Below, piece after piece: positions 1-58,203 of a DNA stretch of 64,000 bases. Origin of the DNA: Gammaproteobacteria bacterium. Lineage in GTDB: Bacteria > Pseudomonadota > Gammaproteobacteria > Steroidobacterales > JABDMI01. Both the position numbers and the translations under genes were made by a program. The notes below the pieces were generated by a model. That model saw only the letters and a program-made list of their open reading frames with translations. It was not told where the DNA came from and did no database searches. Position 1 is the first letter of the stretch. Every line of letters starts with the position of its first letter. The stretch lies in contig JABDMI010000029.1 in assembly GCA_013001575.1 (NCBI GenBank), positions 4,792-68,791 on the forward strand. Direction: 5' to 3'.

Positions 1-150
1 AGCCGAAGTATCGGGTTTAATCTCCACTTGCGGCTGACTTGTTGTCGGGCGGCGAGTAGAATACCAAAAAAGTCCTGACTAATCCGGCTTTTATGCGCTT
101 TGTTTAACTAAAAATTATACCCGTATTTCTATCCCAGGCAGCAGATCAAA

Positions 151-966
151 TTGACTGATAACGCGATTACACAAGCACTTGAAAATGTACGCATCGTTCT
201 GGTGGGCACAACTCACTCCGGAAACATAGGGTCCAGTGCGCGAGCCATGAAAACCATGGGATTATCCGACCTGCATGTGGTTAATCCCTGTAAATTTTCG
301 GCGCGCAATGGTGATGCCCATGCCTTGGCTTCGGGCGCTCTGGATGTATTGTCAGGGGCGCAACGGCATACGGACCTGGCCTCGGCAATCTCGGACTGTG
401 GTGTGGTGATTGGGGCGAGTGCTCGTTTACGCGCGTCCAGATGGCCTCAACTGGATCCGGTGGAAGCGGCTGAGAAATTGCTGGAATACTCGGAAAATCA
501 ACCAGTTGCGCTGGTTTTTGGGCGTGAGCGGAGTGGCCTGAGCAATGATGAACTGGATCATTGCCAATATTTGACCCACATAAACGCAAATCCGGAATAC
601 AGCTCATTGAATTTGGCCATGGCCGTGCAGGTGTACGCCTATACCCTGCGTATGCAGTTTTTGAATTCAGTGAAGAGCAGAGTGTTGCAATCTCCTGAAA
701 CCGATACAATGCATCCGGACGACGTGCCGGCGACTGCCGGTGAGTTGAACTTTTTATTCACGCGTTTGGAAAAGCTCCTGGATAAAGTGGACTTCCTGTT
801 TCAGCAAGACCCGCAATACATGGTGCGCAAGATCAAACGAATGATCTACCGTGCTGAACTGGAACACAAAGAGGTTAATATTGTCCAAGGGATATTGACT
901 TCGATTGAGAACAAGATAAATAAACTGGAAACACAACTGAGTCAAAACACGACTGAATCAGAATAA
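151..966 (+). CDS. trmJ: tRNA (cytidine/uridine-2'-O)-methyltransferase TrmJ (SpoU/TrmH class)
   Basis: The N-terminus RIVLVGTTHSGNIGSSARAMKTMGL parallels E. coli TrmJ. TTG start. It lies just upstream of iscS, as in other gammaproteobacteria. Confidence 0.8.
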   Translation: MTDNAITQALENVRIVLVGTTHSGNIGSSARAMKTMGLSDLHVVNPCKFSARNGDAHALASGALDVLSGAQRHTDLASAISDCGVVIGASARLRASRWPQLDPVEAAEKLLEYSENQPVALVFGRERSGLSNDELDHCQYLTHINANPEYSSLNLAMAVQVYAYTLRMQFLNSVKSRVLQSPETDTMHPDDVPATAGELNFLFTRLEKLLDKVDFLFQQDPQYMVRKIKRMIYRAELEHKEVNIVQGILTSIENKINKLETQLSQNTTESE

Positions 967-1006
967 TAAGCAGCCAGATAACTAAAGATCACACTAATAC
1001 CTTTGC

Positions 1007-2260
1007 ATGAGCTCATCGCCAAAAAAATCATCGACTTCCGACGATTGTCGTCACAATAAAACCATTTATCTGGATTACGCGGCAACAACTCCGGTTGATC
1101 CGCGCGTGGCAGAAAAAATGATGCATTGTCTGACGCTTGATGGTTGTTTTGCGAATCCTGCCTCCAGCAGTCATCATTTGGGCCGACAGGCACGTGGCAA
1201 GATTGAAATGGCCAGACGTCAGGTTGCCAGTTTAATCAATGCACAAGCCGAAGACATAATCTGGACGTCCGGCGCAACCGAGTCGGACAATCTGGCCTTA
1301 AAAGGTGTTGCCTATTACCACACCGAAATTGATCATAATAATAAACAAGCCATTAAGCGTAAACACATTGTGACTTGCCGAACCGAGCACAAGGCCGTAT
1401 TGGATACTTGCAAATACCTCGAGTCGGAAGGGTATGCGGTTACCTATTTGAAGCCTGAATGCAATGGTCGTGTGTGCCTGCAACAGTTCCGCGAAGCTTT
1501 GCGTGAAGATACTGTGCTGGTTTCTATCATGCATGTGAATAACGAGATTGGTGTAATTCAGGATATTGAGGCAATTGCCGAGATCTGTCAGACGCGCGGG
1601 ATCGTATTCCACGTGGATGCCGCTCAAAGTGCCGGGAAAATTGTACTGGATGTAGAAAAGATCCCGGTCGACCTGTTGTCTTTCTCGGCACACAAAATAT
1701 ACGGCCCGAAAGGCATAGGGGCTTTATATGTCAGGGCCGCCCAGCGCGTGCAAGTTGAGCCCCTCATCCACGGTGGAGGGCATGAGGCCGGATTGCGTTC
1801 AGGCACTTTAGCAACCCACCAGATCGTTGGTATGGGCGAGGCCTTTGCCTTGGCCAGGCAAGAGTTGGAAAACGATAATCAGCATATTTTGAAATTACGA
1901 CAAAAACTTTTGCACGGCATCAAAGTGCTGGGCGGGATCACGATCAACGGTTTTGAAAACTGTTTTGATGAGCAAGGCAAGCTGCAACAATTGCCAGGTA
2001 TTTTGAACGTCAGTTTTGATGGAATCGAAGGTGAAAGTTTGTTGTACGCCTTGTGTGAATTGGCCGTGTCCAGTGGTTCGGCGTGTACTTCGGCCAGTGC
2101 GGAACCATCCTATGTGTTACGTGCCCTGGGTCGTGATGACCAATCTGCACAAAGTTCGATCCGTTTCAGTATCGGGCGCTTTACCACCGACGCAGATATC
2201 GAGCGCGCCATCGAGGTCATACAAACCCAGGTCAGACGTATACGGGCATTTGCCGCATGA
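1007..2260 (+). CDS. iscS: Cysteine desulfurase IscS (group I), lacking the usual C-terminal tail
   Basis: Nearly colinear with E. coli IscS by eye: [22 protein letters not shown]-lysine region [19 protein letters not shown], and active-site loop SSGSACTS. It ends about 20 aa earlier than E. coli IscS. Confidence 0.9.
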
Positions 2261-2613
2261 GTATGCAATATAATACATTTGTCTCCGAGGCCTTCAGCAA
2301 TCCGCGTCATTTATTTGACGAGCAGGTGGAGCTATCGCGTACCGAGCAGAGTTCGGCCGGGGCACGTGAGCAGGGTGTATGGTTCAAGTTGATCTTCGAC
2401 CAGCCTAATCACCGACTCTACTACAAAGTGTATGGCAATCCGTATGCGATTGCAGCCGCCGAATATCTGGCGCGCGAAGTTTCCGCAAAATCCATAGAAA
2501 TCGGACAAAAACTTGATCTGGAAAATTTACGCGAGTTGCTGGATATGCCATATCCTTATTTGCACATATTGCTGAGTCTGGAAGATGCCTGGAATGCCCT
2601 ACAGCCCCAATAA
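2257..2613 (+). CDS. IscU/NifU-N-like protein lacking all cysteine ligands
   Basis: ATGA overlap with the iscS stop. Aligns by eye with IscU: NPRHLF vs [19 protein letters not shown] vs [27 protein letters not shown] vs FKTYGCGSAIASSS, and [15 protein letters not shown] vs KIHCSILAEDAIKAA. The 118-aa product contains zero Cys. Confidence 0.7.
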
Positions 2614-2675
2614 TTTGTTTCAAAATGCACACTCGTTCACAAATACATACCTCTCTAAAATGTTAGAATAGAGCC

Positions 2676-3011
2676 ATGAACCAAGCACAAAAGATCACCC
2701 TCACGCAGGCCGCCGCAGAGCGGGTAGCAGGCTTTATCCAGCAAGAAAAGAACAGCCTCGGCTTACGTTTCGGGGTTAAAAAGACCGGCTGTAACGGTTA
2801 CGCCTATGTCATTAATATGGCGCAAGACATTGCGGCTAATGACACGGTGTTCGAAGATCAGGGTATCAAGATCATTGTTGACGCCGAAAGCCTGCCGTTT
2901 CTCGCTGGCACCCAGATCGATTTCGTCAAACAGGGTTTGAACGAAGCTTTTCAATTCCGCAATCCCAAGGTCACCGGCGAATGCGGCTGTGGCGAGAGTT
3001 TCAGTATTTAA
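2676..3011 (+). CDS. iscA: A-type iron-sulfur carrier (IscA/ErpA/HesB family)
   Basis: The 111-aa product has the GCNGY motif and the C-terminal CGCGESF signature of A-type carriers. Confidence 0.85.
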   Translation: MNQAQKITLTQAAAERVAGFIQQEKNSLGLRFGVKKTGCNGYAYVINMAQDIAANDTVFEDQGIKIIVDAESLPFLAGTQIDFVKQGLNEAFQFRNPKVTGECGCGESFSI

Positions 3012-3361
3012 CTCAGAAATAATCCTTGTTGCGATTATTCACGTAATCCTCATTTTTTAAGAGAATAAGAGTGACCCAATATAACTGGTGTCACGGGTTT
3101 ACTGTCACGGATGGAAAATTCGGTTCGATGGCAAATGCCCGGGTGAGTGGATAATTCACTTTCCCTACTAATAAGGATAGGGCTGAGATATTCACACTCG
3201 ATATACGTAGAGATTGGTGTGAGCAGCAGCCAGATCCAAGTTCTTCAATGTGCGACCTCATTTCAGGGTAAAATATCGCCCTTTATTTGCTCATTATTTG
3301 ATCGAAATTACTCGACCGAGCTAGCCATTTTATTTAATTAATACCCAAGATTGGAGCCCCC

Positions 3362-3787
3362 ATGTCTGTTGAACGCACTATTTCTATTATCAAACCCGAT
3401 GCCGTAGCCAAAAACGTAATTGGCCAGATCTATTCCCGTTTTGAGAACGCCGGTCTTAAGATCGTTGCGGCCAAAATGAAGCATTTGAGCAAATCTGAAG
3501 CGGAAGGTTTTTATGCGGTGCATAAAGAGCGTCCGTTTTTCAATGATCTGGTGGCGTTCATGACCTCGGGTCCCGTTATGGTTCAGGTCCTGGAAGGTAA
3601 GAATGCGGTCGCAAAAAATCGCGAACTCATGGGTGCCACTAATCCGCAAGAAGCCGATGCCGGTACCATTCGGGCCGATTTTGCCGAAAGCATTGATGCC
3701 AACGCCGTACACGGTTCGGACAGTCTGGAAAATGCTGCAATCGAAACCGCGTACTTTTTCCCGGTTACAGAATTGTGCCCACGTTAA
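3362..3787 (+). CDS. ndk: Nucleoside diphosphate kinase
   Basis: [20 protein letters not shown] and an overall 141-aa Ndk layout. RBS GGAG lies upstream. Confidence 0.95.
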
Positions 3788-3842
3788 TTCAAGTACTGTA
3801 AAGCCAAACTGAACTCTTCCAGGTCTATTCACACCAAGTCTT

Positions 3843-5024
3843 ATGAGTATAGATATTCCAATCCAGGTTGAAAGTAATCCACCGATTACTGAGAACAAGT
3901 CGCAACAGAATTTGTTGGGCATGACGCGTACGGGACTGGAAAAGTTTTTTGCAGGTCTGGGTGAGAAACCATTTCGTGCCCGTCAGATCATGAAATGGAT
4001 CTACAAAAAAGGTGCGGCAGATTTTTCACAAATGACCGACCTGTCTAAAAAACTTCGTGAGAAACTCCTTGCGGAAGCCAATTTGACGGTGCCCGAGATT
4101 ATGACCACGCAACACTCTGCGGATGGCACGCGTAAATGGTTACTGCGCATGGATTCAAGTCAGGGGATCGAGACGGTATTTATTCCCGATGGTGCACGCG
4201 GTACCCTGTGTGTATCCTCACAAGTGGGTTGTGCGCTGGATTGTTCGTTTTGTTCTACGGCGCAACAAGGGTTTAACCGCAATCTGAGTGCAGCCGAAAT
4301 TGTCGGTCAAGTATGGCTGGCGCAACGCGAACTGGCACTTGAACGTGGTATCGATCTATTGAATTCGACCACCCCGGAACGCATTATCACCAATGTTGTT
4401 TTTATGGGGATGGGAGAGCCATTGGCCAATTATCGTGAAGTGGTACCGGCCATGCAGATCTTGCGGGATGATATTGGCTTTGATCTGTCGCGTCGTCGTG
4501 TCACCCTGAGTACTTCCGGATTAGTCCCGCAATTGAATAAACTCGCGGCAGAAGTAGATGTTGCCCTGGCAGTTTCCTTGCACGCTCCAAGCAATGATCT
4601 ACGTAATGAACTGGTTCCTATCAATCGCAAACATCCGATTGAAGAATTACTGCCGGCCTGTTGGGATTATTTGCAAAAAACCAAAGGGCGAAATGTGACG
4701 TTTGAATACGTGATGTTGCAAGAAGTGAATGATCATCCTGAACAGGCACATGCATTAGCCGATTTACTGAAAAACAAAACTTACGCGGCTAAAGTCAATC
4801 TAATTCCGTTTAACCCGTTCCCGGGAACGGAGTACCAACGCTCGAGTGGAAACCGGATCGAACGCTTCCGGAAAATTTTGGCATCAAAAGGTGTTATTGC
4901 AACCACCCGGCGTACCCGGGGCGATGACATTGACGCGGCTTGTGGCCAATTGGCCGGAAAAGTAGCCAACCGGGTTAAAAAACGAATGGGAAATAAACGC
5001 TTTAGTAATACATCTGAGGCCTGA
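3843..5024 (+). CDS. rlmN: 23S rRNA/tRNA A-C2 methyltransferase RlmN (radical SAM)
   Basis: Radical-SAM motif CALDCSFCST, FRARQIMKWIY, and C-terminal DIDAACGQL. The true start may be the internal Met (MTRTGLEKFF). Confidence 0.9.
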   Translation: MSIDIPIQVESNPPITENKSQQNLLGMTRTGLEKFFAGLGEKPFRARQIMKWIYKKGAADFSQMTDLSKKLREKLLAEANLTVPEIMTTQHSADGTRKWLLRMDSSQGIETVFIPDGARGTLCVSSQVGCALDCSFCSTAQQGFNRNLSAAEIVGQVWLAQRELALERGIDLLNSTTPERIITNVVFMGMGEPLANYREVVPAMQILRDDIGFDLSRRRVTLSTSGLVPQLNKLAAEVDVALAVSLHAPSNDLRNELVPINRKHPIEELLPACWDYLQKTKGRNVTFEYVMLQEVNDHPEQAHALADLLKNKTYAAKVNLIPFNPFPGTEYQRSSGNRIERFRKILASKGVIATTRRTRGDDIDAACGQLAGKVANRVKKRMGNKRFSNTSEA

Positions 5025-5072
5025 AAAATCGCTATACTTAGACTCGGATACACAGTAACAGGTAAATAATCT

Positions 5073-5930
5073 ATGCGAAATTCAGTAATGTTCAATCGTT
5101 CAACACGCAAGTGTTCAATTCGCCTGATGTTAGTACTTGGTTTGTTCCCGCTAATTTTTACCAGCGCATGTGTCTCAATTAACACCGGGCAACCAGCAAC
5201 TACCGCAAATACAAATAAATTGCCACAACAGAGCAAGCGTAACACTGAATCAAAAGTTTCTTTGGAAGAAGCAGCACGCTTTAACATGACCCTGGGTGCA
5301 CAATATCTAAAACAAAATGACCTCGAACAGGCGATAAACAAACTTAACAAAGCGGTTACCCAGCAACCTAATCTCGCCCTGGCACATGCTTATCTTGGCT
5401 TCGCGCATGAACAAATAGGTGATCTGCCCAAGGCTAAAATTCACTACGCACGCGCGATAAAACTTGATCCAAGTGACCCGGTGGCATTGAATAATTACGG
5501 CACTTTTTTATGTCGCCAGAATGATGTTCGCGAGTCTTTGGTGTATTTTGAAAAAGCGGCTGAAAACCGTCTCTATCAAACACCGGACGCGGCCTATGCC
5601 AATGCCGGAGTATGTGCGCGAAAAATTCCTGACCTGGTTGCGGCAAATAAATATTTTCGTAAAGCGATCGGGGTGAATCCGAAATACACTCCGGCTTATT
5701 ACCATTTGGCTGACCTTAGTCTGGAACAAGGCAAGCCTGATGCGGCACGCGAGTTTTTGAAAAGCTTGACTAAATACACACCGGAAAGCAGCCAGTCTGC
5801 CGATTATTTGTGGTTGGGTTTCCGTATTGAGCGTGCGGCCAGGAATTACGATAAGGCCGGTTATTACTCTGTGCAATTACAACAAAAATATCCGTCTTCA
5901 AAACAAGCCAAGCAGTTGCTTGATCGCTAA
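5073..5930 (+). CDS. pilW: TPR lipoprotein, type IV pilus biogenesis/stability protein PilW (PilF)-like
   Basis: Lipobox FTSAC, multiple TPR units, and a conserved position after rlmN. Confidence 0.7.
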   Translation: MRNSVMFNRSTRKCSIRLMLVLGLFPLIFTSACVSINTGQPATTANTNKLPQQSKRNTESKVSLEEAARFNMTLGAQYLKQNDLEQAINKLNKAVTQQPNLALAHAYLGFAHEQIGDLPKAKIHYARAIKLDPSDPVALNNYGTFLCRQNDVRESLVYFEKAAENRLYQTPDAAYANAGVCARKIPDLVAANKYFRKAIGVNPKYTPAYYHLADLSLEQGKPDAAREFLKSLTKYTPESSQSADYLWLGFRIERAARNYDKAGYYSVQLQQKYPSSKQAKQLLDR

Positions 5931-5946
5931 AGACCGGTTCTGAATT

Positions 5947-7005
5947 ATGACTGAAGCAGAAAATCTGGATAAAGATATCAACTCAGGCGAACAATCGGTG
6001 CGAAACGTTTTATCGCCGGGCAGCATGCTACGCAATAAACGTGATGCCCTGGGTCTGGAATTAAAGGATATTGCCCGCGAATTGAATCTCGACACCTGGA
6101 TGTTAACCGCGATTGAAGCCGATGAATTTAACCGTTTTGGCGCCCAGGTCTTTGCCAAAGGCCACCTTAAACATTACGCCCAGCATCTCGGATTAAATCC
6201 GGACGATGTTTTGTTTGCCTATTATCAGGTTGCCCAACCCAAAGAAACCACACCGGTAATTAAACAGAACCTGAGTAGCACCAAAAACCGAAAATCTCAT
6301 GCAAAATTTAGTAAATGGTTTATGCGCTTTCTGGCCTTGCTAACCGTTGCAGCTCTGGTGTATGCAGCTGTTATATTGGTACAGTTATGGTTAAAGGACG
6401 CACAGGAAAATTCGGGCAATGATTCTGTAATCCCGGTTCCGGTTAATTCTGCAGCTATTCAATCAGATTCATCCCTGTCAGAAGATCAGACCTCTAGCAG
6501 TTCAGCAAACAATGAGAAGTCTCTGAGGCTCGCTTTGCCGCAAGCATCAGATGAGATAACAGCACAAGCGCAAGATTTGTCGAATGCCATGTCAGAGCAA
6601 TCGACTAATTTAGCCGTAGCACTGAATAACGAGGAAACAGATCTACCTGCACAAGAAGATGTCCCGCAACAAGTTAATCAAGAACCGCTAGATTCCATCG
6701 CTCAGAACAATGAACCCAAAAGTCTTCTAAATGTGGCATCAAATAATAATGCCAGCAATAATGTACTGCAGTTTAATTTTTTGGAAAGTTCCTGGATTGA
6801 AGTTATTGCTGAAAATGGACAGCGCTTGATCTATGGCATGGCAAATCAAGGCACTGTACGCGATATCAATATAAATGGTCCAACAGAAATATTTTTGGGC
6901 AATGCGCAAGGTACGCGTATTTTACTGAATGGCAGTTTTTATGATATACCTGCCAATGCCAGAGCAGGCCGTACTGCGCGCTTTGTATTAGAGCCCGGCC
7001 AATAA
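5947..7005 (+). CDS. rodZ: RodZ-like cytoskeleton protein (HTH, TM, DUF4115)
   Basis: N-terminal HTH (LRNKRDALGLELKDIARELNL), a single TM segment, a low-complexity linker, and a C-terminal beta domain (SSWIEVIAENGQRLIYG). Confidence 0.75.
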   Translation: MTEAENLDKDINSGEQSVRNVLSPGSMLRNKRDALGLELKDIARELNLDTWMLTAIEADEFNRFGAQVFAKGHLKHYAQHLGLNPDDVLFAYYQVAQPKETTPVIKQNLSSTKNRKSHAKFSKWFMRFLALLTVAALVYAAVILVQLWLKDAQENSGNDSVIPVPVNSAAIQSDSSLSEDQTSSSSANNEKSLRLALPQASDEITAQAQDLSNAMSEQSTNLAVALNNEETDLPAQEDVPQQVNQEPLDSIAQNNEPKSLLNVASNNNASNNVLQFNFLESSWIEVIAENGQRLIYGMANQGTVRDININGPTEIFLGNAQGTRILLNGSFYDIPANARAGRTARFVLEPGQ

Positions 7006-7102
7006 GTCTGTCGGTGTCCTGAATTTGGCTTGATTTGTTACAAATATTTCTGATCGTTTTCGATTTTACCCATTCACGCACAAAGCGAAATGAGAGATTT
7101 CA

Positions 7103-8383
7103 GTGTCTAAAATAATCCAATCACTACGTGGTATGAACGATATTCTGCCAAACGAGACACCCCACTGGCAGTTTCTGGAAAACACAGTGCGCGAAATACT
7201 TTCATCCTATGCATACCGTGAAATTAGATTCCCGGTAGTCGAGCACACCGAGTTGTTTAAGCGTTCTATTGGTGAAGTGACCGATATTGTTGAAAAAGAA
7301 ATGTATTCATTCGGTGGCGACGATCACAAAAAATATTCCCTGCGGCCGGAAGGTACGGCAGGCTGTGTGCGTGCCGGTATTAGCAACGGCTTGCTGTATA
7401 ACCAAACACAGAAGTTGTGGTACATGGGACCAATGTTTCGGCATGAGAAGCCGCAAGAAGGGCGTTATCGTCAATTTCACCAGATAGGTGCAGAAGCGTT
7501 TGGTTTTGCCGGACCCGAAGTGGACGCTGAACTGATCATGCTCACAGCCAGACTTTGGAAAAAGCTCGGTTTATCCCCAATGCTTGAAATAAATTCAATT
7601 GGAAGCTCGGAAACCCGTGTGCAATACCGTACAGCGCTGGTTGGGTATTTTACCTCTCATCGGGACTTGCTGGATGAAGATAGTTTAAGACGCCTGGAGC
7701 GAAATCCGATGCGCATTTTGGACAGCAAAATTCCCCAGACGCAGGAACTGGTTAAAAATGCACCTGTGTTATCCGCGTTTCTAAACCAGGAAGAGCAAGA
7801 CCACTTCCTGGGTTTGCAAAATTTGCTTGATGATGCCGGGATCACTTATCGGGTCAACCCCAGACTGGTGCGTGGACTGGACTATTATTCACTCACGGTT
7901 TTTGAATGGATCACTGATCAGTTAGGTGCTCAGAATGCCATATGTTCAGGCGGGCGATACGACGGCCTGGTTGAGCAATTAGGTGGAAAACCTTGCAAAG
8001 CGGTTGGCTGGGCCATGGGCATTGAAAGGGTTGTGTTGCTTTTAAAACAAGCAAATATTCAGATTCCAGATACACATCCCGAGCTGTACCTGGTTTTGGA
8101 TGCTGCTGCAGAAGTCAAAAGGGCTGGTTTTCAATTGGCCGAAAAGATACGTGACGGGTTAAATGGGGTAAAATTAGAGGTTTACTGCGGTCATGCAGGG
8201 TTTAAGTCGCAATTAAAGCAGGCAGATAAAAGCGGTGCGCAATTTGCATTGATACTGGGCCAAGATGAATTGGCCAAAAATTGCATAAGCCTTAAAAATT
8301 TGAGGGTTCGCAGTGAACAAGAATCGCTTGCTTTTAATGACATTATTAGCGAATTGTGCAAACGACTTGAATCGCAAAGCTGA
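7103..8383 (+). CDS. hisS: Histidine--tRNA ligase
   Basis: GTG start. Class II motifs are present: LRGMNDILP, YRQFHQIGAEAFG, GGRYDGL. Confidence 0.95.
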   Translation: MSKIIQSLRGMNDILPNETPHWQFLENTVREILSSYAYREIRFPVVEHTELFKRSIGEVTDIVEKEMYSFGGDDHKKYSLRPEGTAGCVRAGISNGLLYNQTQKLWYMGPMFRHEKPQEGRYRQFHQIGAEAFGFAGPEVDAELIMLTARLWKKLGLSPMLEINSIGSSETRVQYRTALVGYFTSHRDLLDEDSLRRLERNPMRILDSKIPQTQELVKNAPVLSAFLNQEEQDHFLGLQNLLDDAGITYRVNPRLVRGLDYYSLTVFEWITDQLGAQNAICSGGRYDGLVEQLGGKPCKAVGWAMGIERVVLLLKQANIQIPDTHPELYLVLDAAAEVKRAGFQLAEKIRDGLNGVKLEVYCGHAGFKSQLKQADKSGAQFALILGQDELAKNCISLKNLRVRSEQESLAFNDIISELCKRLESQS

Positions 8384-8456
8384 ACAGGATTCTAACCAGC
8401 AGTAATTACAATAGAAAAATTAACAGAACAATTCTTTAGGTGCAAACAGGATAATC

Positions 8457-9092
8457 ATGAGCGAATATTTGAGTGATGCTGAACAAAAACAGCAAATAGT
8501 AGATTGGTGGAATGAGAACGGTAAATTTATTGTTACCGGGGTTGGGCTTGGACTTGTTGCTATATTCGCATGGCGTGGCTGGACGGCTTATCTCGATAAA
8601 CAAGCGGGTGCGGCTTCCATTGTTTTCGAAGATATGGTCACGGCGGTTAATGAAGGCGAGAGTGATACGGCAAAGAATCACTTGTCGACTCTGACTGATA
8701 AATACAAAAGTACGGCGTATTATCCCCACGCCCAGATGCTCATGGCCAAAGTCGCATTGGAGTCTGGAAATTTGGCTGACGCAGCAACGGCTTTGGAGCA
8801 AGCGATCAGCACCAGCAAAGATGCCGAGCTCACAGAGCTTGCGAATTTTCGTTTAGCCAAGGTCTATTTGGCCCAACAGAATTTTGATGCTGCGCTTACC
8901 ACTATCGCAAAAGTTAAAAGCGAATCTTACATACCACTGGTCGAAGAGCTACGTGGCGACATTTTTCGCGCCCAAGGCAATATAAATGATGCGCGGTTTG
9001 CGTATGAAAAGGCTCAAACTGCGATGTTGGAAACTCCAATCGGTGACCCGAACCTCTTGCAAATGAAATTGTCTGATCTCGGTAAAAAATAA
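8457..9092 (+). CDS. yfgM: YfgM-family membrane-anchored TPR-like protein
   Basis: N-terminal EQKQQIVDWWNENGK followed by a TM segment and a TPR-like C-terminus. It sits at the conserved hisS-yfgM-bamB-der position. Confidence 0.7.
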   Translation: MSEYLSDAEQKQQIVDWWNENGKFIVTGVGLGLVAIFAWRGWTAYLDKQAGAASIVFEDMVTAVNEGESDTAKNHLSTLTDKYKSTAYYPHAQMLMAKVALESGNLADAATALEQAISTSKDAELTELANFRLAKVYLAQQNFDAALTTIAKVKSESYIPLVEELRGDIFRAQGNINDARFAYEKAQTAMLETPIGDPNLLQMKLSDLGKK

Positions 9093-24403: not shown

Positions 24404-25104
24404 CTATGCGTGCAATGATTCTCGCTGCAGGACGTGGAGTGCGTTTAAGTCCCTTAACGGATACAAAACCCAAGCCTTTGATCAGGGTTGGAGAAAAATG
24501 TTTGATCGAATATCAGATTGAAGCATTACACAAAGCCGGTATCCAAGACATTGTGATAAATACCGGATGGCTCGGACAGCAACTGATCGACCACTTGGGC
24601 AGCGGGAGTCGTTACAAAGTTAATCTCGAGTATTCAATCGAGCCGGAATCCGGTCTTGAAACCGGGGGTGGAATTTATCAGGCCTTGCCATTATTAGGCA
24701 ATAAGCCTTTTATAGTCGTGAATGCAGACATATTCCACCAGTTCGATCTCGAGGGACTGGGTCATGATCTGGACGCTGACACACTTGCTCATTTGGTTCT
24801 GGTAGAAAATCCAAGTTTTAATCCTGGCGGTGATTTTTGCATGCTGGAAAATAAGGTGTTTCTAAAAGATCCAGCGTTGCCGGATAGTCATGATCATGCA
24901 GATAAAAAATCCTATACATTTTCCGGAATTGGCGTATACAGACCAGAATTATTCATTGAATTGCGCCCCGGAAAATTTCCCTTGGCGCCACTTTTGAAAG
25001 CGGCCATTCGACGTGCCCGAGTCACGGGAGAATTCACAGCAGCGCGTTGGTTTGACGCCGGAACCGAATCACGCATTGCCGAGATCGAGCGTTTTATTCG
25101 CTAG
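24400..25104 (+). CDS. murU: Nucleotidyltransferase, MurU-like (MurNAc-1-P uridylyltransferase)
   Basis: AMILAAGRGVRLSPLTDTKPKPL sugar-nucleotidyltransferase motif. The start overlaps the amgK stop. Confidence 0.75.
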   Translation: MTMRAMILAAGRGVRLSPLTDTKPKPLIRVGEKCLIEYQIEALHKAGIQDIVINTGWLGQQLIDHLGSGSRYKVNLEYSIEPESGLETGGGIYQALPLLGNKPFIVVNADIFHQFDLEGLGHDLDADTLAHLVLVENPSFNPGGDFCMLENKVFLKDPALPDSHDHADKKSYTFSGIGVYRPELFIELRPGKFPLAPLLKAAIRRARVTGEFTAARWFDAGTESRIAEIERFIR

Positions 25105-25759
25105 TCATAACCGCCTGTTGCCCACCTTTGAGTTTGTTGGGCACACTTTCACGACTGGCTTTAGGCACATTCAGGCGACTCTCGTCAAAAGGATGCCATT
25201 CGTATTTATCGCCTTTAACATAGGTGTAAGTTAACTTTCCCGAGCTGCGCCATGCATCCAGCACCACCCCGGCGTAGAAATCTTGACCAATCGCAGTAAC
25301 CACAGGGGAGCTGTGCTCTAAGGGATAGCTGCTGCCTTCATTGGCGATACCCCAATGGAATTGCATGGTTTTATAATTTTTTTCTCTTAGCATTGTGATC
25401 AGGTCATAACAGAAATGAATGCACAGACCTCGTGGGCGATATCCATAATTGACCAGGACATTGTGCCAAACCGGAGGCCAAGTCAGGTTAAATTCCTTGG
25501 CTAAGGACATCGCTCTGAAAACTGAACTTTCAGCTAGGTCACGCGCTTCTATCGGGTCAATACTTTCATCCAGGCTCAGCACAAGTTCGAAGACTTCATC
25601 CACTCTTTGTTGATAAAGCTCAGGCGTATCTTCAATATTCAAGCCAACCAGTTGACCGGTGTCATCGGTTTCAATATCACCATATTGAATTGGCACACAA
25701 GCACTTAGGACGAAAGCAGTGATAAGAAATAATAATCGTGTAAGAATAGTTTTTTGCAT
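25094..25759 (-). CDS. Lipoprotein of unknown function
   Basis: Signal peptide with lipobox LSAC. No family was recognised. Its 3' end overlaps the murU 3' end by 11 bp (convergent). Confidence 0.5.
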   Translation of the reverse strand: MQKTILTRLLFLITAFVLSACVPIQYGDIETDDTGQLVGLNIEDTPELYQQRVDEVFELVLSLDESIDPIEARDLAESSVFRAMSLAKEFNLTWPPVWHNVLVNYGYRPRGLCIHFCYDLITMLREKNYKTMQFHWGIANEGSSYPLEHSSPVVTAIGQDFYAGVVLDAWRSSGKLTYTYVKGDKYEWHPFDESRLNVPKASRESVPNKLKGGQQAVMTSE

Positions 25760-25924: not shown

Positions 25925-28165
25925 TTAGTCTAAGTCAAGACCCAACTCTCTGATCACACGCAGTGTGATGTATTTCGAAGTTGTTGAGACTGGCAGACCT
26001 TTTTTACGCGCGTAACATTCGTTAGCACCACGATAGGTACATGGACCAATGATACCGTCAATGCGGCACTCGTAGCAGCCAACAGCTTTCAGGGCTGTTT
26101 GCAGCTTACGGATGTTTGCATTGGTCATGTTCACGTCACACAGAACCGGGCGCCATTCTGAACGCTCGTCTGAAACTTTAACGTTACGCGTAATAGTTTC
26201 GTATTCCGCAGGAATAGGAATGCTGCGTGTTGAAGCTGGAGTGTCAACGACTTGCTTGGATACAGTTTTGTAAACCGCAGGAACGGTTTCAGTACGGTAT
26301 GAAGCAGGTTTGGTGACAACGCGACGGGATACAGACTTGTACTCGGCAGGAATGTTGATCTCACGCTGTGAAGCTGGGGTATCAACCACTTGCTTGGTTA
26401 CCGTTTTGTATACCGCAGGAACCGGGATCTCGCGAGTTGAAGCAGGCTTGACCACAATTGTGGTGTCAACATTTGCATACTCGGCAGGAATCTCGATAGT
26501 GCGTGAAGACGCAGGTGTATCTACCACTTGCTTGGTTACTGTTTTGTAAACCGCAGGTACTGCAATTTCACGCGTTGTCGCAGGTTTGACCACTGTAGTA
26601 GTGTCAACGTTAGCGTACTCGGCTGGAATTTCGATAGTGCGGCTAGAAGCAGGCTTAACCAATACTTGTTTAGTAACTGTCGCATACTCAGCAGGAACTT
26701 CGATCTCACGAGTTGATTCAGGTGTGATCAACTTGGTGGTATCAACGTTTGCATACTCGGCAGGAATTTCGATAGTACGGCTGGAAGCAGGCTTAACCAA
26801 AACTTGACGGGTAACTGTACGGTACTCGGCAGGAATTTCTACCAAACACATTACTTCACCAGTGTCATTGGTTTTAGTTTCAACAACAGTTCCACCAAAA
26901 CGCTCAACAAAACTACCAACGGTTACGTTAGTTGCTGCTGAACCTACGCCAGAACCAGAACCACCACCGGTACCAGTAGAGCGTTTCCATTCTGTACGAG
27001 CAGGGCGAACCATAACTTGCTCAGACTCGGTGCGGTATTCGGCAGGAATAGTTTCGATACGGGTTGAGGCTGCACGAACCATTACACGCTCAGAACCAGG
27101 ACCGTATTGAGCAGGAATAACTTCAGTACGAGTTGTTGCTGGAGAAACCAGAACACGCTCGGTTACTGTTTTATATTCTGCAGGGATAGTTTCGATACGA
27201 GTAGATGCTGCACGAACCAAAACACGCTCTGTACCACTACCGTATTGAGCAGGAACTACTTCAGTACGAGTAGATGCCGGTTGAACCAGCACTTGCTCGG
27301 TTACAGTTTTGTAAGTAGCAGGAATGGTTTCGATACGAGTTGATGCTGCACGAACCAGGACACGCTCACTACCTTTGCCGTATTGGGCAGGGATAACTTC
27401 TGTGCGTGTTGAAGCTGGTTGAACCAGAACTTGCTCGGTTACAGTTTTGTAAGTAGCAGGAATGGTTTCGATGCGAGTTGACGCTTCACGTACCAGAACT
27501 TGATCTGACTCAGAGCCATATACTGCTGGAATAGGAATACGTTTTTCAAAGGCAGGCTTAACCAGTACTTGCTCGGTTACAGTTTTGTATGTAGCAGGAA
27601 TAGTTTCGATGCGCTCGGAAGCTTCACGACGAACTACCTTCTCGGATACTGTATTGTAGTTAGCAGGAATGATCACACGAGCGTAACACTCGCCTGGCTT
27701 GGCATTCGGTGGGAACAAGTCGTTGCTACCACAGTTAGGACCACAAACTTCCTTAACCATTGGCTCAACATTCTTGGCCATTGCCAATTCACGACGTAAA
27801 CGGTCGATCTCGGCTTTCAGAGGACCAGTGTTATCTACTGGAGCAGGTGCTGCAGCAACGGGAGCCGCTTGTTGCGAACCGGCAGCTTGACCAGCAGATT
27901 GTGAACCGGCTGATTGACCAGCGGATTGTGAACCGGCTGATTGACCAGCGGATTGTGAACCGGCTGATTGACCAGCAGATTGTGAACCGGCTGATTGACT
28001 AGCAGATTGTGAACCGGCTGATTGACTCGCTGATTGACTTGCTGCTGATTGTGATCCCGCTGACTGACTTGCCGCTGTCTGCGAGCCAGTGCTCGACTGA
28101 GCACAACCAGCCAATGCGACTGCGGCAGCAGAGACGAGCAGGATATTGACTGCACGAAGTTTCAT
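25925..28165 (-). CDS. Repeat-rich lipoprotein with a C-terminal peptidoglycan-binding (PG_binding_1-like) domain
   Basis: ATG at 28165 is preceded by GGAGGG; the tracked TTG at 28180 lies inside that RBS. Lipobox LAGC. The protein has SQ/AG linker repeats, a short coiled-coil segment (LKAEIDRLRRELAMAK), 20 [IV]PAxY 23-aa repeats, and C-terminal IRKLQTALKAVGCYECRIDGIIGPCT..ARKKGLP. Confidence 0.8.
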   Translation of the reverse strand: MKLRAVNILLVSAAAVALAGCAQSSTGSQTAASQSAGSQSAASQSASQSAGSQSASQSAGSQSAGQSAGSQSAGQSAGSQSAGQSAGSQSAGQAAGSQQAAPVAAAPAPVDNTGPLKAEIDRLRRELAMAKNVEPMVKEVCGPNCGSNDLFPPNAKPGECYARVIIPANYNTVSEKVVRREASERIETIPATYKTVTEQVLVKPAFEKRIPIPAVYGSESDQVLVREASTRIETIPATYKTVTEQVLVQPASTRTEVIPAQYGKGSERVLVRAASTRIETIPATYKTVTEQVLVQPASTRTEVVPAQYGSGTERVLVRAASTRIETIPAEYKTVTERVLVSPATTRTEVIPAQYGPGSERVMVRAASTRIETIPAEYRTESEQVMVRPARTEWKRSTGTGGGSGSGVGSAATNVTVGSFVERFGGTVVETKTNDTGEVMCLVEIPAEYRTVTRQVLVKPASSRTIEIPAEYANVDTTKLITPESTREIEVPAEYATVTKQVLVKPASSRTIEIPAEYANVDTTTVVKPATTREIAVPAVYKTVTKQVVDTPASSRTIEIPAEYANVDTTIVVKPASTREIPVPAVYKTVTKQVVDTPASQREINIPAEYKSVSRRVVTKPASYRTETVPAVYKTVSKQVVDTPASTRSIPIPAEYETITRNVKVSDERSEWRPVLCDVNMTNANIRKLQTALKAVGCYECRIDGIIGPCTYRGANECYARKKGLPVSTTSKYITLRVIRELGLDLD
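26153..27688 (-). repeat. 69-bp (23-codon) coding repeats in two blocks of ten units
   Basis: Block 1 covers aa 165-397 and block 2 covers aa 448-676 of the tracked ORF. Each block ends in a (T/S)EW(K/R) motif. Adjacent units alternate, giving a 46-aa super-repeat. Confidence 0.85.
27866..28090 (-). repeat. 27-bp near-perfect tandem repeat encoding an AGSQSAGQS-type linker
   Basis: The plus strand shows ggattgtgaaccggctgattgaccagc repeated head-to-tail several times with few substitutions. Confidence 0.85.
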
Positions 28166-28253
28166 TGTTTTACCCTCCAAGGTAAATCCCCAAATAAAAA
28201 AAATGGCACCGCCTATGAAAAAGACAGCACACCATTAGCTATAAAGCCTGTGT

Positions 28254-44850: not shown

Positions 44851-46026
44851 TTAGGTTGCACTTTTTAGCCAGACTTCGATCTGTGTGCCCAGGTTTTTGA
44901 GATCAGCGTTCGCGGCCACAAAAATATTCAGGTCATCGGCACGGCGTTGATTGCCTTCACTCAGGTTTTCAAGTGCAACCAGCATGGCCTTGCCGCGAAT
45001 GCCGCCCAACAGATCACGTAAACTGTCCAGCTTGTATATGGCCTTGAGACCATGCCCGGTCGAGGATTTTTTACGGCGAAAGCGCTGGGTTTTGCATTCG
45101 ATTATGTGCAGTGAGTTGTTGTACAAAAAAGCCACGTCGATCTCATTCGGGATTATGCCCGTCGGGGTCTGCCGATGGACTTTGACATTGCGCGCGACAT
45201 CCTGGATCTGCGGAATGTGCTGTTGCAGTTTACTGATCACATCAAACACATAAGCTTCCAGCCACCCGCCACTGGCATACCAGCGCGCCTGATAGCTTTT
45301 AAATACCAGTTCATTTTTCGTGTAGTGCAAAAATTTATGTTGCTGATAAATACCCAGTAACTGTTTTAATCCTTTGCTCTTCAGGTCATTGGGTTTGAGT
45401 CGCGTGCGATCTTCCCGGTCGGCGCGCGTGGCCAAACGGTTTAACACATTAAAGGCGTTGCTGATCTGCGGTGCGGCTTGGGCCAGAGCAAAGACCAGTT
45501 TTTTCTCCTCGCCTTCCAGCGGGCTGCGGTCAATGGCTACTGTGCCGGTTTTTACGACCTCGGCCCCTCGTACCCCCATGTAATCGTCAATACTGATCTT
45601 GTCGGCCAAATTGAAGTCTTTTCTTTTGCCGTCATTCACCCACATCAAAGTGTCGGTTTTAGGATGCACATAAAATATCGGGAGATTTGCTGCGCGAAAC
45701 ACATGACAGGCTGCAATATTCATTGCTTTGGTCCCGCCAGCAGCGTTTAGTGTTAATGCCGCGTTTTTGTAGGTATTGAGTAATTCCTGCATGGATTTCT
45801 GGATCGTGTGCACATCCCAGGCGTCTTGTATCTGCCAATCAATAACCGGGATTTTATGTTTTTTCAGGGTTGTGCTTAACCATTCCACTTTTTCCTGGAT
45901 ATCAGGGCTGGCAACAATAATGACCTGATGTGGACGCGTGCGTTTATCCAACAGAGGTGTGATGATGGTATTGGGCTGATCAGTGATCAAACACACGTGA
46001 ATACGTTTTTTCTTGGTCTGTGACAT
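44851..46026 (-). CDS. Card1/Can2-like CARF-domain plus PD-(D/E)xK nuclease (DUF1887-like)
   Basis: N-terminal Rossmann-like CARF signatures (RIHVCLITDQPN and LNAAGGTKAM). C-terminal restriction-endonuclease-like motif GGWLEAYVFD ... NEIDVAFLYNNSLHIIECKT (D-x13-E-x-K). The start at 46026 is preferred because the tracked TTG at 46074 lies inside the upstream terminator T-run. Confidence 0.7.
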   Translation of the reverse strand: MSQTKKKRIHVCLITDQPNTIITPLLDKRTRPHQVIIVASPDIQEKVEWLSTTLKKHKIPVIDWQIQDAWDVHTIQKSMQELLNTYKNAALTLNAAGGTKAMNIAACHVFRAANLPIFYVHPKTDTLMWVNDGKRKDFNLADKISIDDYMGVRGAEVVKTGTVAIDRSPLEGEEKKLVFALAQAAPQISNAFNVLNRLATRADREDRTRLKPNDLKSKGLKQLLGIYQQHKFLHYTKNELVFKSYQARWYASGGWLEAYVFDVISKLQQHIPQIQDVARNVKVHRQTPTGIIPNEIDVAFLYNNSLHIIECKTQRFRRKKSSTGHGLKAIYKLDSLRDLLGGIRGKAMLVALENLSEGNQRRADDLNIFVAANADLKNLGTQIEVWLKSAT

Positions 46027-46072
46027 GGCCTCAATGGCTGTTTGGTGTTTTGCCGGATTAATCCAGTGTAAC

Positions 46073-46098
46073 AAAAAAGAGCGAACCGAAGTTCGCTC
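46073..46098 (-). terminator. Rho-independent terminator (UUCG tetraloop)
   Basis: The minus strand reads GAGCGAAC-TTCG-GTTCGCTC followed by TTTTTTG, 43 nt after the stop of the 306-aa secreted protein gene. Confidence 0.85.
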
Positions 46099-46140: not shown

Positions 46141-47061
46141 TTATTGAATGCCTTGCCCATAATGACGATAACGGCTATTGGGTGGCGGCGGTACAAATCC
46201 GTAGTTGCCATAAGATCCTGACCAAAAACGGTTGCGCTCACGTTTGTTGTATCCGCAACGACTGATGCCCATTTCACACAAAGTGGCCTTACGCTCGTAT
46301 TTAATAAAGTGTTTGACCGCGGCGTATTTTTCAGCTTTAAAATGCACCCGACGTGAAGGTGAATAGCGATTGTCACCGTAACCCGTGCCCAGCTCATCCA
46401 GCGCTTCTGACTGGTAACCACCTTTGGATTGTGGTGCACGTTTCTGTGCTGAACCCGATGGCGACTGTTTGCGTGATCCTGAATCACCTCTACCTTTATA
46501 AGCATAGTCGTCGTAGTCCGGCTCTCTATACCAGCGACCATTTTTCTCTTTGAACACAGCGACCGCGATCACACCCATGGCCGAACGATCCCCAAAGGTC
46601 TGGTCGGAATACGAATCCGGTACATCGGTGAAATAGAATTCGTTGATTCGATTCTTGCCACTTCTCCAGCCGTCATAAGTAGCCGCCTGGTAAGGATTAA
46701 GAATGTACATGCGTTCTTTGGCTTTGAGTTTAGACTTTTTACCACTGATGATATTGCGACCGTCAACCGCAATTACCAGGCCAATTCGCTGACGTGTGTT
46801 GTTTTTCACCCTGATGCCATACGACTTGCCGTCTTTGGCTTCCAGATAAGCACGTTTCACGCTGTATTGACCGCTATTGATCGGGTATTTTTTAAAGCGT
46901 CGCCCGTAATCATTCACCACTTGCACATCCACCAGTTTGCCGGCATGTGGATAAGCGATGCGATCATTGTCGTGACCCGCCATTAATTGCGGTACTGCAA
47001 ACACGGCGATCAAGGTGAGCAATACAATAAAATAATTATTAACTTTGTTGGGTGTTTTCAT
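46141..47061 (-). CDS. Secreted protein of unknown function
   Basis: ATG at 47061 is preceded by AGGAG with a 6-nt spacer. Signal peptide MKTPNKVNNYFIVLLTLIAVFAVPQLMA. The C-terminal half is basic and Tyr/Gly-rich. No family was recognised. Confidence 0.6.
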   Translation of the reverse strand: MKTPNKVNNYFIVLLTLIAVFAVPQLMAGHDNDRIAYPHAGKLVDVQVVNDYGRRFKKYPINSGQYSVKRAYLEAKDGKSYGIRVKNNTRQRIGLVIAVDGRNIISGKKSKLKAKERMYILNPYQAATYDGWRSGKNRINEFYFTDVPDSYSDQTFGDRSAMGVIAVAVFKEKNGRWYREPDYDDYAYKGRGDSGSRKQSPSGSAQKRAPQSKGGYQSEALDELGTGYGDNRYSPSRRVHFKAEKYAAVKHFIKYERKATLCEMGISRCGYNKRERNRFWSGSYGNYGFVPPPPNSRYRHYGQGIQ

Positions 47062-47271
47062 AACGTACTCCTGATGAATGGTCTTGATTGCAACACACTG
47101 ATGTGCTGCTTTTTTCAAGCTTCGTGAACAGATTGCCATGCAGTGACTGAATTGTGACTGAATGTAAAAAAAACATTATTCAGTTTGAATTCAGGAACTT
47201 AAGACAAAACCGTCCAGTATCAGAAGAAACGAGAGAGATCCCGGAATGGGGTTAAAAAAAGAATAAAAATA

Positions 47272-48120: not shown

Positions 48121-49001
48121 TAGATTAGATACTGCAATACACTAACTCTGTCCAGAGCTTGAAAATCTTGCAAACACATCTGGTAATCCAGTCCAAAGCG
48201 TTGTGCCATTTCCTGAATGTCCAGTGACTGTTCATGCCCGTGCTCTAATAACAAATAGCCATTGGGTTTAAGATAGGTTTTTGCGCCGGACACCAGTTGC
48301 TCGATAATCGCTAAACCGTTATTCTCAGCAATCAGGGCGTGACGTGGTTCGTGTTGCATGGTTGGGTGTAATAAATACTGATCGTCGGCAGCAATATATG
48401 GCGGGTTACTCACGATGAGGTCGTAATTGTCTTCTGGAAGTGCGGAAAACAAGTCGCCTTTGAACATCGCCACATTATCCAGTTGCAAGCGTGCCAAACT
48501 GCGATTGGCAACTCGCAAGGCCATGCCGTCAATATCGCAGGCATGCACTTCACAGTCGGGTCTTTCACTGGCCAGGGCAAAGGCAATCGCTCCCGAACCT
48601 GTGCAAATATCGGCAATTACTTGCTCGGAATTTTCCGGGATTAACTTTAAGGCGTGTTCAACCAGCAACTCGGTCTCGGGTCGGGGCACCAGAGTATGTT
48701 CATCTACATCCACAAGCAGATTCCAGAAGCCTTTGCTGCCCAACAGATAAGCAATGGGTTTGCCAGTGGCACGTTTTTCGATGAGGGCATCAAACTGCTC
48801 TTTATGCTCAGTAGAAACGATCTTGTCCGGCCAGGCTTTGAGTGCGCTGCGGTTACACCCCAGCACATGCGCGAGCAAGATATCAGCGTCCAGGCTTGGC
48901 GAATGACTGGCTTGATGAATTCGTTGATACGCACTTTCCAGCAAGTCGGTAACACATTGACTTGATCCGCTTAAACTCTGATCATTTGTTAAGGAATGCA
49001 T
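48120..49001 (-). CDS. prmC: Release factor glutamine methyltransferase
   Basis: PRPETE, DICTGSGAIA, and the catalytic NPPY motif. Confidence 0.9.
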   Translation of the reverse strand: MHSLTNDQSLSGSSQCVTDLLESAYQRIHQASHSPSLDADILLAHVLGCNRSALKAWPDKIVSTEHKEQFDALIEKRATGKPIAYLLGSKGFWNLLVDVDEHTLVPRPETELLVEHALKLIPENSEQVIADICTGSGAIAFALASERPDCEVHACDIDGMALRVANRSLARLQLDNVAMFKGDLFSALPEDNYDLIVSNPPYIAADDQYLLHPTMQHEPRHALIAENNGLAIIEQLVSGAKTYLKPNGYLLLEHGHEQSLDIQEMAQRFGLDYQMCLQDFQALDRVSVLQYLI

Positions 49002-49058
49002 GGGATTATTGTAGTGGCTTGGCGTACAATACGCTGGTCTAATTTCAGTGATATTTTT

Positions 49059-56719: not shown

Positions 56720-57157
56720 TTAATCTTTGGCGGGAATGACTATAGAGCGTTTTTCAGCTACCCAGGCTTTAATTCCACCTTGCATAGAGACAATATTACT
56801 GAAGCCCAGTTTTTGTAAAGCGTCAGCACCAACGGCCGAGCGATTGCCGCTACGACAATACAACACAATAGTTTGTTGTGATGAATCATTGCCAAGGCTT
56901 TGCAAGTATTTGGGGAACTCGGATTGCAGCTGTCCCACTGGAATATGAATCGCACCGGGTATCATGCCTGTAATAATTTCATCAGATTCACGTACATCTA
57001 TGACCAGGTCCTTGTGTAAATGATTGTTAGCAACATCATGGGTTGAGACTTGAATGACTCTTGCTTTGGCTTTTTGCACAGGATCCGCAATTGTTGAATC
57101 GGTGCATGCGCTTAGTAAAAGCGTGATCAGTAACAGGGTTTTAAAATGTTTAAACAT
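56720..57157 (-). CDS. Exported single-domain rhodanese (sulfurtransferase)
   Basis: ATG at 57157 follows GAGGA. Lipobox LSAC. The active-site loop is YCRSGNRS. Confidence 0.8.
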   Translation of the reverse strand: MFKHFKTLLLITLLLSACTDSTIADPVQKAKARVIQVSTHDVANNHLHKDLVIDVRESDEIITGMIPGAIHIPVGQLQSEFPKYLQSLGNDSSQQTIVLYCRSGNRSAVGADALQKLGFSNIVSMQGGIKAWVAEKRSIVIPAKD

Positions 57158-57185
57158 GATGTCCTCGTCATTGATGATATTGAAA

Positions 57186-58184: not shown

Positions 58185-58203
58185 GTATGTTGATCCTTGG
58201 AAT

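Follow-up and report, generated by a model that had tools for sequence, protein, structure and literature searches.

A cysteine-free IscU homologue maintained beside IscS in a reduced isc locus

IscU is among the most conserved of proteins and is regarded as defined by its three cysteines. What, then, is the role of an IscU-like protein that carries no cysteine at all, encoded directly behind the gene for the cysteine desulfurase IscS? This question is raised by a 64,000-nucleotide stretch of DNA (the window) from a gammaproteobacterium assigned to the Steroidobacterales (assembly GCA_013001575.1, contig JABDMI010000029.1, positions 4,792 to 68,791 of the forward strand). The gene, called iscU* here, was singled out by an earlier examination of the DNA letters alone (the sequence-only reading). 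The explanation that we favor, and consider probable, is that its product is a degenerate IscU, or “pseudo-scaffold,” that keeps the IscU fold and the IscS-docking surface and serves as a non-catalytic subunit of IscS, with iron-sulfur (Fe-S) clusters being made elsewhere.

The genes and intervals on which this explanation is built are as follows.

151-966, + strand: trmJ, tRNA 2'-O-methyltransferase (NF011694 TrmJ, E = 2e-73; TIGR00050, 226.6 bits, over the cut-off)
1007-2260, + strand: iscS, IscS-type cysteine desulfurase, 417 amino acids (NF010611 IscS, 566 bits against a cut-off of 548)
2257-2260, + strand: ATGA, in which the iscS stop codon (2258-2260) overlaps the iscU* ATG (2257), read from the raw sequence
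2257-2613, + strand: iscU*, cysteine-free IscU-fold protein of 118 amino acids (profile, fold, and selection analyses)
2676-3011, + strand: iscA, A-type Fe-S carrier, 111 amino acids (PF01521, E = 1e-19; TIGR00049, 117.6 bits against a cut-off of 58.8)
3012-3361, no strand: intergenic region of 350 nucleotides with no gene, at the position of hscB-hscA-fdx-iscX in Escherichia coli and Pseudomonas
3362-3787, + strand: ndk, downstream edge of the locus (PF00334, E = 4e-58; NF001908, 215.9 bits)

In E. coli and Pseudomonas, the interval from trmJ to ndk holds (cysE)-iscR-iscS-iscU-iscA-hscB-hscA-fdx-iscX. In the window, trmJ is the upstream edge of this ancestral isc site and lies 40 nucleotides from iscS, a spacing that does not contain iscR, and ndk is followed by rlmN, a pilF-like tetratricopeptide repeat gene, rodZ, and hisS. 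None of iscR, hscB, hscA, fdx, and iscX is present between trmJ and ndk, as the sequence-only reading had noted, and none was found among the annotated open reading frames (ORFs) of at least 110 amino acids in the window. The 350-nucleotide gap downstream of iscA yielded no Rfam match at E values up to 0.1 (positions 1-8000 were scanned). Promoter and terminator matches within it occur only at chance level, including one terminator-like hairpin at 3265-3282.

The same reading had described an overlap between the iscS stop codon and the 118-codon ORF, and the raw sequence at the junction, GCC GCA TGA GTA TGC, confirms it. This arrangement suggests that the two genes are translationally coupled. 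Because a further in-frame ATG at position 2263 lines up with the start of related proteins, the true start of iscU* is either 2257 or 2263.

The replacement of the cluster ligands is likewise exactly as first described. Using E. coli numbering, C37 is replaced by Q, D39 by V, C63 by N, and C106 by I, and H105 is kept; at the level of motifs, ACGD becomes EQGV, YGCGS becomes YGNPY, and IHCS becomes LHIL. The number of cysteines in the entire protein is zero. In addition, the HscA-recognition motif LPPVK (99-103) reads MPYPY. With all cysteine ligands and the HscA motif lost, IscU* is therefore unable to build or hand over a cluster in the manner of IscU. The loss of cluster-ligand cysteines recurs in 11 of 11 orthologues. 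Within the narrow iscU* family, the ligand positions have drifted (Q, R, N, K, or H at 37; N or S at 63; H, N, or Y at 105; I, S, or V at 106) and the residues adjacent to them are invariant, which is the pattern expected if the metal site is gone while the surrounding surface still matters.

Is this protein truly an IscU homologue? As a single sequence, it matches Pfam NifU_N (PF01592) with E = 0.005 and 17.5 bits, under the cut-off of 22, and TIGR01999 with E = 6e-4 and 19.9 bits, far under the cut-off of 192.4, although both matches span the full length of the protein. A search of 5.8 billion proteins recovered the protein without any change from three assemblies that represent a single uncultured gammaproteobacterium, where it is labelled “hypothetical,” and seven more relatives with 48-57% identity. 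A profile built from eight family members was then compared with PDB sequences, a check that the sequence-only reading had proposed. Every significant match is IscU or ISCU, the best (E = 5.4e-7) aligning residues 2-113 with residues 1-116. Alignment of the iscU* family with E. coli IscU by hhalign gave a probability of 93.6%, and the two proteins are collinear over their full length with about 25% identity.

The predicted structure agrees with the profiles. An AlphaFold2 model of IscU* computed from an eight-row alignment has a pLDDT of 91 and a pTM of 0.85, with helices and strands in the same order as in IscU. When this model was used for a Foldseek search of the PDB, the top 29 matches were all IscU or ISCU (TM scores of 0.67-0.77), with SufU further down. 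The matches include human ISCU, E. coli IscU, and the IscS-bound form 3lvl. Thus, the full-length resemblance to IscU that was originally read from the letters is upheld by profile, hhalign, AlphaFold2, and Foldseek results, and IscU* is confirmed as an IscU homologue with the IscU alpha/beta fold. It shares with canonical E. coli IscU this fold, the position directly after iscS, an N-terminal helix of the form Y..V..[YF]..P, and a K-x-Y-G strand, the last two being conserved elements that contact IscS. In contrast, canonical IscU has C37, C63, C106, D39, LPPVK, and hscBA, fdx, iscX, and iscR at its locus, and IscU* is without all of these.

Given an intact IscU fold, one might propose that IscU* is a true scaffold after all, which would hold a cluster through non-cysteine ligands or with the help of IscS Cys328 in trans. 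The window protein does have H105, and the Archaeoglobus complex (PDB 4eb5/4eb7), in which a cluster is known to be shared between IscS and IscU, is among the Foldseek matches. However, close relatives have N or Y in place of H105, the other four ligand positions vary, and no conserved cluster of His, Asp, or Glu residues serves as a replacement. Moreover, the chaperones and ferredoxin of the IscU cycle are not encoded at the locus. We therefore judge a non-cysteine scaffold to be very improbable.

A protein that has lost its defining residues might also be a decaying remnant, that is, a pseudogene or dispensable ORF left after loss of the iron-sulfur cluster (ISC) system. The scores below the Pfam and NCBIfam cut-offs and the NCBI label of a hypothetical protein would fit this explanation, as would the pace at which iscU* changes, about 2-3 times that of the neighboring genes (dN of 0.166 versus 0.057-0.071). 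Arguing against decay are eleven intact orthologues with 38-88% identity and frames of 116-130 amino acids, drawn from two GTDB-representative loci (L005 and L006) and from metagenomic contigs including L012, L013, L016, and L017. The first eight sequences (46-57% identity) share 37 invariant columns. The confident predicted fold and the retention of related degenerate forms across orders also speak against a remnant.

Ratios of non-synonymous to synonymous substitution (dN/dS) were computed by the Nei-Gojobori method for two independent pairs. Between L005 and L006, dN/dS is 0.087 for iscU* (at a dS of about 1.9, which is near saturation), 0.034 for iscS, 0.047 for iscA, and 0.042 for trmJ. 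Between L016 and L017, it is 0.107 for iscU* (at an unsaturated dS of 0.57, with 32 synonymous versus 16 non-synonymous differences) and 0.043 for the adjacent fragment of iscS. Hence, iscU* is clearly under purifying selection. The sequence-only reading had suggested that the gene is not dead and had named frame disruptions and neutral evolution among relatives as signs to the contrary; ratios of about 0.1 and undisturbed orthologue frames bear out its view. We reject the pseudogene explanation, to which we assign hardly any probability.

How far do such proteins extend beyond this genome? An exhaustive HMMER search was conducted with the family profile against 1.84 billion representative proteins. 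It gave 165 matches, the best 149 of which were aligned with E. coli IscU. Only three clusters (50% identity) score above 130 bits, and these constitute the narrow clade of the window protein, separate from the Legionella proteins described below. About 160 more score 37-58 bits. Canonical IscU from gammaproteobacteria reaches a lower score with this profile, about 31 bits. Among the best 149 of the 165 matches, the full set of C37, C63, and C106 is present in 0 of 149, whether judged by alignment column or by an alignment-free count of motifs. Of these 149 proteins, 64 keep none of the ligand cysteines, 57 keep C63 only, 13 keep C106 only, 12 keep C63 and C106, two keep C37 only, and one keeps C37 and C63. 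This mosaic of retained cysteines suggests that ligands were lost in several events.

Two large branches are conspicuous. The “YGNPY” branch holds proteins from Legionella and Tatlockia that carry the NCBI name “iron-sulfur cluster assembly scaffold protein.” These proteins (for example, WP_045106461.1 from Legionella hackeliae) and their uncultured relatives resemble the window protein in their operon, ATGA overlap, short IscS tail, YGNPY motif, and loss of C37 and C106. They differ in that they share only 25-33% identity with IscU*, pass the Pfam NifU_N threshold, and mostly keep K/R103 (IPKTK). The Legionella sequences examined (L008 from L. hackeliae, 6841-8761, and P0158, P0162, P0169, P0178, P0192, and P0199) are without C37, C63, and C106 and read GRGD, YGNPY, and RYPVAL. 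Judging from these motifs, the names “scaffold protein” and “NifU” given to Legionella proteins by NCBI and UniRef are probably over-annotations.

The second branch, “[FY]GCPH,” comprises at least 1510 clusters, including Woeseia and many uncultured Gammaproteobacteria, and its sole ligand cysteine is Cys63. The Woeseia proteins, too, are named as cluster assembly scaffolds despite the missing ligands. Its members (L010, 3556-3951; L014, 7001-7420; P0012; P0024; and P0292) have an invariant E-K-x-G-R where canonical IscU has V-K-I-H-C, and their locus is trmJ-iscS-X-iscA-ndk. This branch has synteny identical to that of the window from suhB/trmJ to bamB (L010 and L014) and shares with IscU* the loss of C37 and H105/C106 and the proline after position 63, but differs in keeping Cys63. 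In IscU, this residue reportedly pairs with IscS Cys328 in a disulfide. Having Cys63, the proteins of this branch could still accept a persulfide, and the window protein cannot. To judge from their one cysteine, they could be persulfide carriers rather than scaffolds.

The gene neighborhoods tell a similar story. The order trmJ-iscS-iscU*-iscA, extended by ndk-rlmN-pilF-rodZ-hisS, is found in the window and in L005, L006, L012, L017, L010, and L014. The order trmJ-iscS-iscU*-iscA is found in L007 and in the Legionella locus L008, and iscS-iscU*-iscA in L015. The stretch from suhB/trmJ to bamB is repeated in a closed metagenomic genome of 5.8 Mb and in another contig (L010 and L014), and trmJ is the upstream neighbor shared across all related loci. 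In L. hackeliae, suhB / trmJ-iscS-iscU*-iscA encodes proteins of 387 (IscS, ending RLHEISPL), 129 (IscU*), and 123 (IscA) amino acids from overlapping genes. In all ten loci, iscU* adjoins iscS. The ATGA overlap of the two genes occurs in four lineages (the window, L007, L008 from L. hackeliae, and L014), and L005, L006, and L012 have gaps of 13-25 nucleotides instead. Thus, iscU* is not peculiar to one genome, a point that the sequence-only reading had missed, but belongs to a large group of IscU-like proteins deficient in ligands, which is widespread and takes in those of Legionella. The same module appears in every context read. Among the forms of this widespread, reduced ISC module, the window locus is therefore a rather extreme one.

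The IscS of the window and its E. coli counterpart share 57% identity. The sequence-only reading had stated that the window IscS keeps the pyridoxal phosphate lysine (HK) and the SSGSACTS loop and ends about 20 residues early, and both points hold, with 19 residues measured as missing. It scores 549 bits with the older TIGR02006 model and does not reach the cut-off of 643. It ends in RRIRAFAA, the counterpart of E. coli 378-385, and residues 386-404 are absent. Helix a8 (EGESLLYA versus EGESLIMA in E. coli) and the first half of helix a12 are retained, but the second half of a12 (386-391) and the tail are not. Similarly, the partner IscS ends at a position equivalent to E. coli 385-388 in seven of the eight proteins compared, the exception being L010.

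Other features of IscS are confined to close relatives. Compared to E. coli IscS, the protein in the window clade has two insertions, EIDHNNKQA (about 106-114) and FDEQGKLQQ (about 320-328), which are common to L005, L006, and L012 and are not found in IscS from Legionella or L014. An N-terminal extension of 18 residues (1-18) is present on the window IscS and not in L005 and L006. The FDEQGKLQQ insertion lies about 12 residues ahead of helix a8, which contacts IscU, and might make up for the C-terminal helix that is missing.

In the E. coli IscS-IscU structure, the contacts made by IscU are Y3, Y11, G38, V40, K42, K59-G64, and K103 (PMC2854127). On the other side of the interface, IscU touches IscS helix a8 (E309-A316), E347, and the C-terminal helix a12 (R379-K391) (PMC2854127). 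Residues 394-404 of E. coli IscS are disordered, and deletion of 376-404 abolishes IscU binding, as does the K103E mutation of IscU (PMC2854127).

The docking surface has fared differently from the ligands. Among the 149 degenerate proteins, the columns corresponding to IscS contacts are the best conserved, with an average of 2.66 bits compared to 1.62 bits for all columns (permutation p = 2e-4). For example, Tyr is present at position 3 in 138 proteins, Phe at position 11 in 139, and Gly at position 62 in 145, whereas values for the ligand positions C37, D39, H105, and C106 are no higher than 0.73-1.48 bits, among the lowest. In the iscU* family, the N-terminal docking helix is kept (Y5, V9, F13, and P16). 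The recurrent ATGA overlap, the strict adjacency to iscS, and the parallel shortening of the IscS tail point in the same direction. The conserved contact columns and the recurrent overlap lend indirect support to the suggestion of the sequence-only reading that IscU* survives as a partner of IscS. From these patterns, we infer that IscU* would still dock on IscS without receiving sulfur or holding a cluster, which is the most economical reading of the data.

Several observations weigh against this docking model or blunt the evidence for it. K103 is replaced by Tyr (MPYPY) in the window family. Because the window IscS is without half of the contact helix a12 (386-391), docking may be altered or lost. 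The conservation of contact columns could partly mirror constraints of the fold, because these columns coincide in part with the C63 loop, which matters for the structure. Finally, dS is near saturation in one of the two iscU* pairs used to establish selection (L005 versus L006).

The replacement of K103, a residue on which IscS binding depends in E. coli, would also be accommodated if the IscU fold had been recruited for a partner other than IscS, perhaps through an aromatic patch formed by W42, Y63, MPYPY, and W112. Indeed, the former cluster face is the best-conserved part of the narrow family and displays new residues (R37, V41, W42, P62, Y63, M97-P98-Y-P-Y, and W112). However, a function unrelated to IscS is difficult to reconcile with strict adjacency to iscS in ten loci, the frequent overlap of the two genes, and the conserved IscS-docking helix at the N terminus. 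We therefore consider recruitment by a new partner to be unlikely.

It is also necessary to ask where clusters are assembled in this organism. Because the window encodes the Fe-S enzymes RlmN and LipA, the organism needs clusters and another assembly system must exist. Comparison of the 51 main ORFs of the window with Pfam or NCBIfam revealed no SUF, hscBA, fdx, or iscR gene and no second iscU, but only housekeeping genes. Sister contigs, followed for about 5 kb on the upstream side and 10 kb on the downstream side, gave the same outcome. Moreover, hscBA, fdx, iscX, and iscR follow iscS-iscU*-iscA in 0 of the 10 loci examined. The sequence-only reading had concluded that the classical scaffold role is lost, and it is sustained by the replaced and variable ligands, by the loss of LPPVK, and by these ten loci, at which hscBA and fdx are not found.

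Related bacteria offer a guide. Coxiella depends on essential sufBCD and sufS (PMC9997736). In Legionella pneumophila, genes lpg0600-0605 encode an Rrf2 regulator induced by oxidative stress, an “ABC transporter,” and a “NifU” protein, which would fit a putative iscR-suf operon. By analogy with such species, cluster assembly in the organism studied here is probably carried out by SUF.

A different solution would be a minimal, chaperone-free ISC system in which clusters are made on IscA and IscU* serves only as an adaptor, bringing IscA or the Cys loop of IscS into place for sulfur delivery. A-type carriers can receive clusters via IscS in vitro. The three genes stay together and often overlap across deep lineages, and iscU* also overlaps iscA in L007 and L008. 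The window IscA keeps its three ligand cysteines, C39, C105, and C107 (GCNG ... CGCG), including the CGCG motif. The IscA and SufA equivalog models match it strongly, yet under their cut-offs.

Conversely, the proposed contact between IscU* and IscA is purely putative, and Coxiella and similar relatives depend on essential SUF. In addition, the metagenomic relative L012 carries an in-frame fusion of iscA and ndk (2554-3222, an ORF of 222 amino acids) downstream of an intact iscU*. This fusion deletes the C-terminal CGCG of IscA together with about 10 residues at the start of NDK. If it is a real deletion rather than an assembly artefact, iscU* has been kept there beside an IscA that lost its C-terminal Cys motif. 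On balance, we regard chaperone-free assembly on IscA as possible, though the odds appear to be well against it.

The pseudo-scaffold model that we favor can be described as follows. Of the isc operon, only three genes would remain at the ancestral position between trmJ and ndk, namely iscS with its shortened C terminus, iscU*, and iscA. Owing to the gene overlap, IscU* could be made in fixed proportion with IscS, and would occupy, as a non-catalytic subunit, the site on the IscS dimer where IscU normally binds. Once bound, it may stabilize or tune the desulfurase and its choice of sulfur acceptor, and possibly link IscS to IscA, with de novo cluster assembly left to other machinery, presumably SUF. 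In E. coli, binding of IscU and TusA to IscS is mutually exclusive (PMC2854127), and because of this exclusion, occupancy of the site by IscU* could set the choice of acceptor. The homology, the fold, the ligand loss, the purifying selection, the conserved synteny, and the wide distribution are shown, whereas binding to IscS, a regulatory or structural role of this kind, and dependence on SUF are what we infer.

Known systems supply partial parallels. SufU of Bacillus and Mycobacterium provides a precedent, being an IscU-fold sulfur transferase that serves the desulfurase SufS and is not a scaffold. Its structural match to IscU* is weaker (Foldseek E values of 4e-3 to 0.05), and it differs in keeping its cysteines, in binding zinc, and in having as a partner SufS, a type II desulfurase. 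A sulfur relay of the SufU or SufE type was considered for IscU* and is excluded, given that the protein has no cysteine; there is also no TIGR01994 match. The LYRM4 (ISD11) and acyl carrier protein subunits of eukaryotic NFS1 are an analogy only: they are non-catalytic subunits needed by a type I desulfurase, and the fold of ISD11 is unrelated. The orphan iscS of SUF-only bacteria such as Mycobacterium tuberculosis is likewise only an analogy: there, the ISC operon has been cut down to iscS alongside a complete and essential SUF system (PMC10848736). That species keeps no IscU-like gene, whereas the window locus specifically retains one.

Thus, the component families are already known, and SufU already exemplifies an IscU-fold protein that serves a desulfurase. 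Searches of the open-access full-text literature, reviews included, turned up no account of IscU proteins without ligands or of the reduced iscS-iscU*-iscA module. It might be reasonable to propose, as a tentative idea with less in its favor than the model above, that these proteins constitute an undescribed class of pseudo-scaffolds. Such a class would consist of ligand-stripped IscU proteins kept after takeover by SUF as obligate partners of a shortened IscS, where they may gate the desulfurase toward thiolation of tRNAs and cofactors. In a stronger version of the same idea, IscS-IscU*-IscA would be a third, chaperone-independent variant of ISC that builds clusters on the A-type carrier.

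The remainder of the window contains several other genes worthy of mention. A stand-alone Card1-like protein of 407 amino acids, with CARF (PF23400) and endonuclease (PF09002) domains, is encoded at 44851-46074 on the - strand; no search was made for a CRISPR array or cas genes. Card1-like proteins are effectors of a type activated by cyclic oligoadenylate and are usually tied to type III CRISPR systems. Beside this gene, a 332-amino-acid ORF (46141-47139, - strand) matches no Pfam family. Two further ORFs on the - strand have no Pfam family at E values up to 1e-5, one of 751 amino acids (25925-28180), for which there is only a sub-threshold match to DUF5372, and one of 221 amino acids (25094-25759). 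At 56720-58217 (- strand), a gene for a pyridoxal phosphate-dependent (PALP) enzyme overlaps a rhodanese-domain gene, and the two are a possible sulfur-transfer pair. In addition to this pair, the window carries a cystathionine-beta-synthase-like gene (48996-50507), a DUF2891 gene, an NRAMP transporter gene, and pxpABC.

A large natural set of IscU proteins that have shed some or all of their ligands, and are nevertheless under purifying selection beside IscS, amounts to a natural separation-of-function experiment on the cluster-independent role of IscU for IscS. There is also a consequence for genome annotation. Metabolic reconstructions may take the presence of IscS and IscU to mean that the ISC system is functional, as does one for a Legionellales symbiont that draws a conclusion of just this kind, and for the lineages described here such reconstructions may be wrong. 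If the pseudo-scaffold class is real, it would be directly testable by genetics, because the cultivable pathogen Legionella carries the same module.

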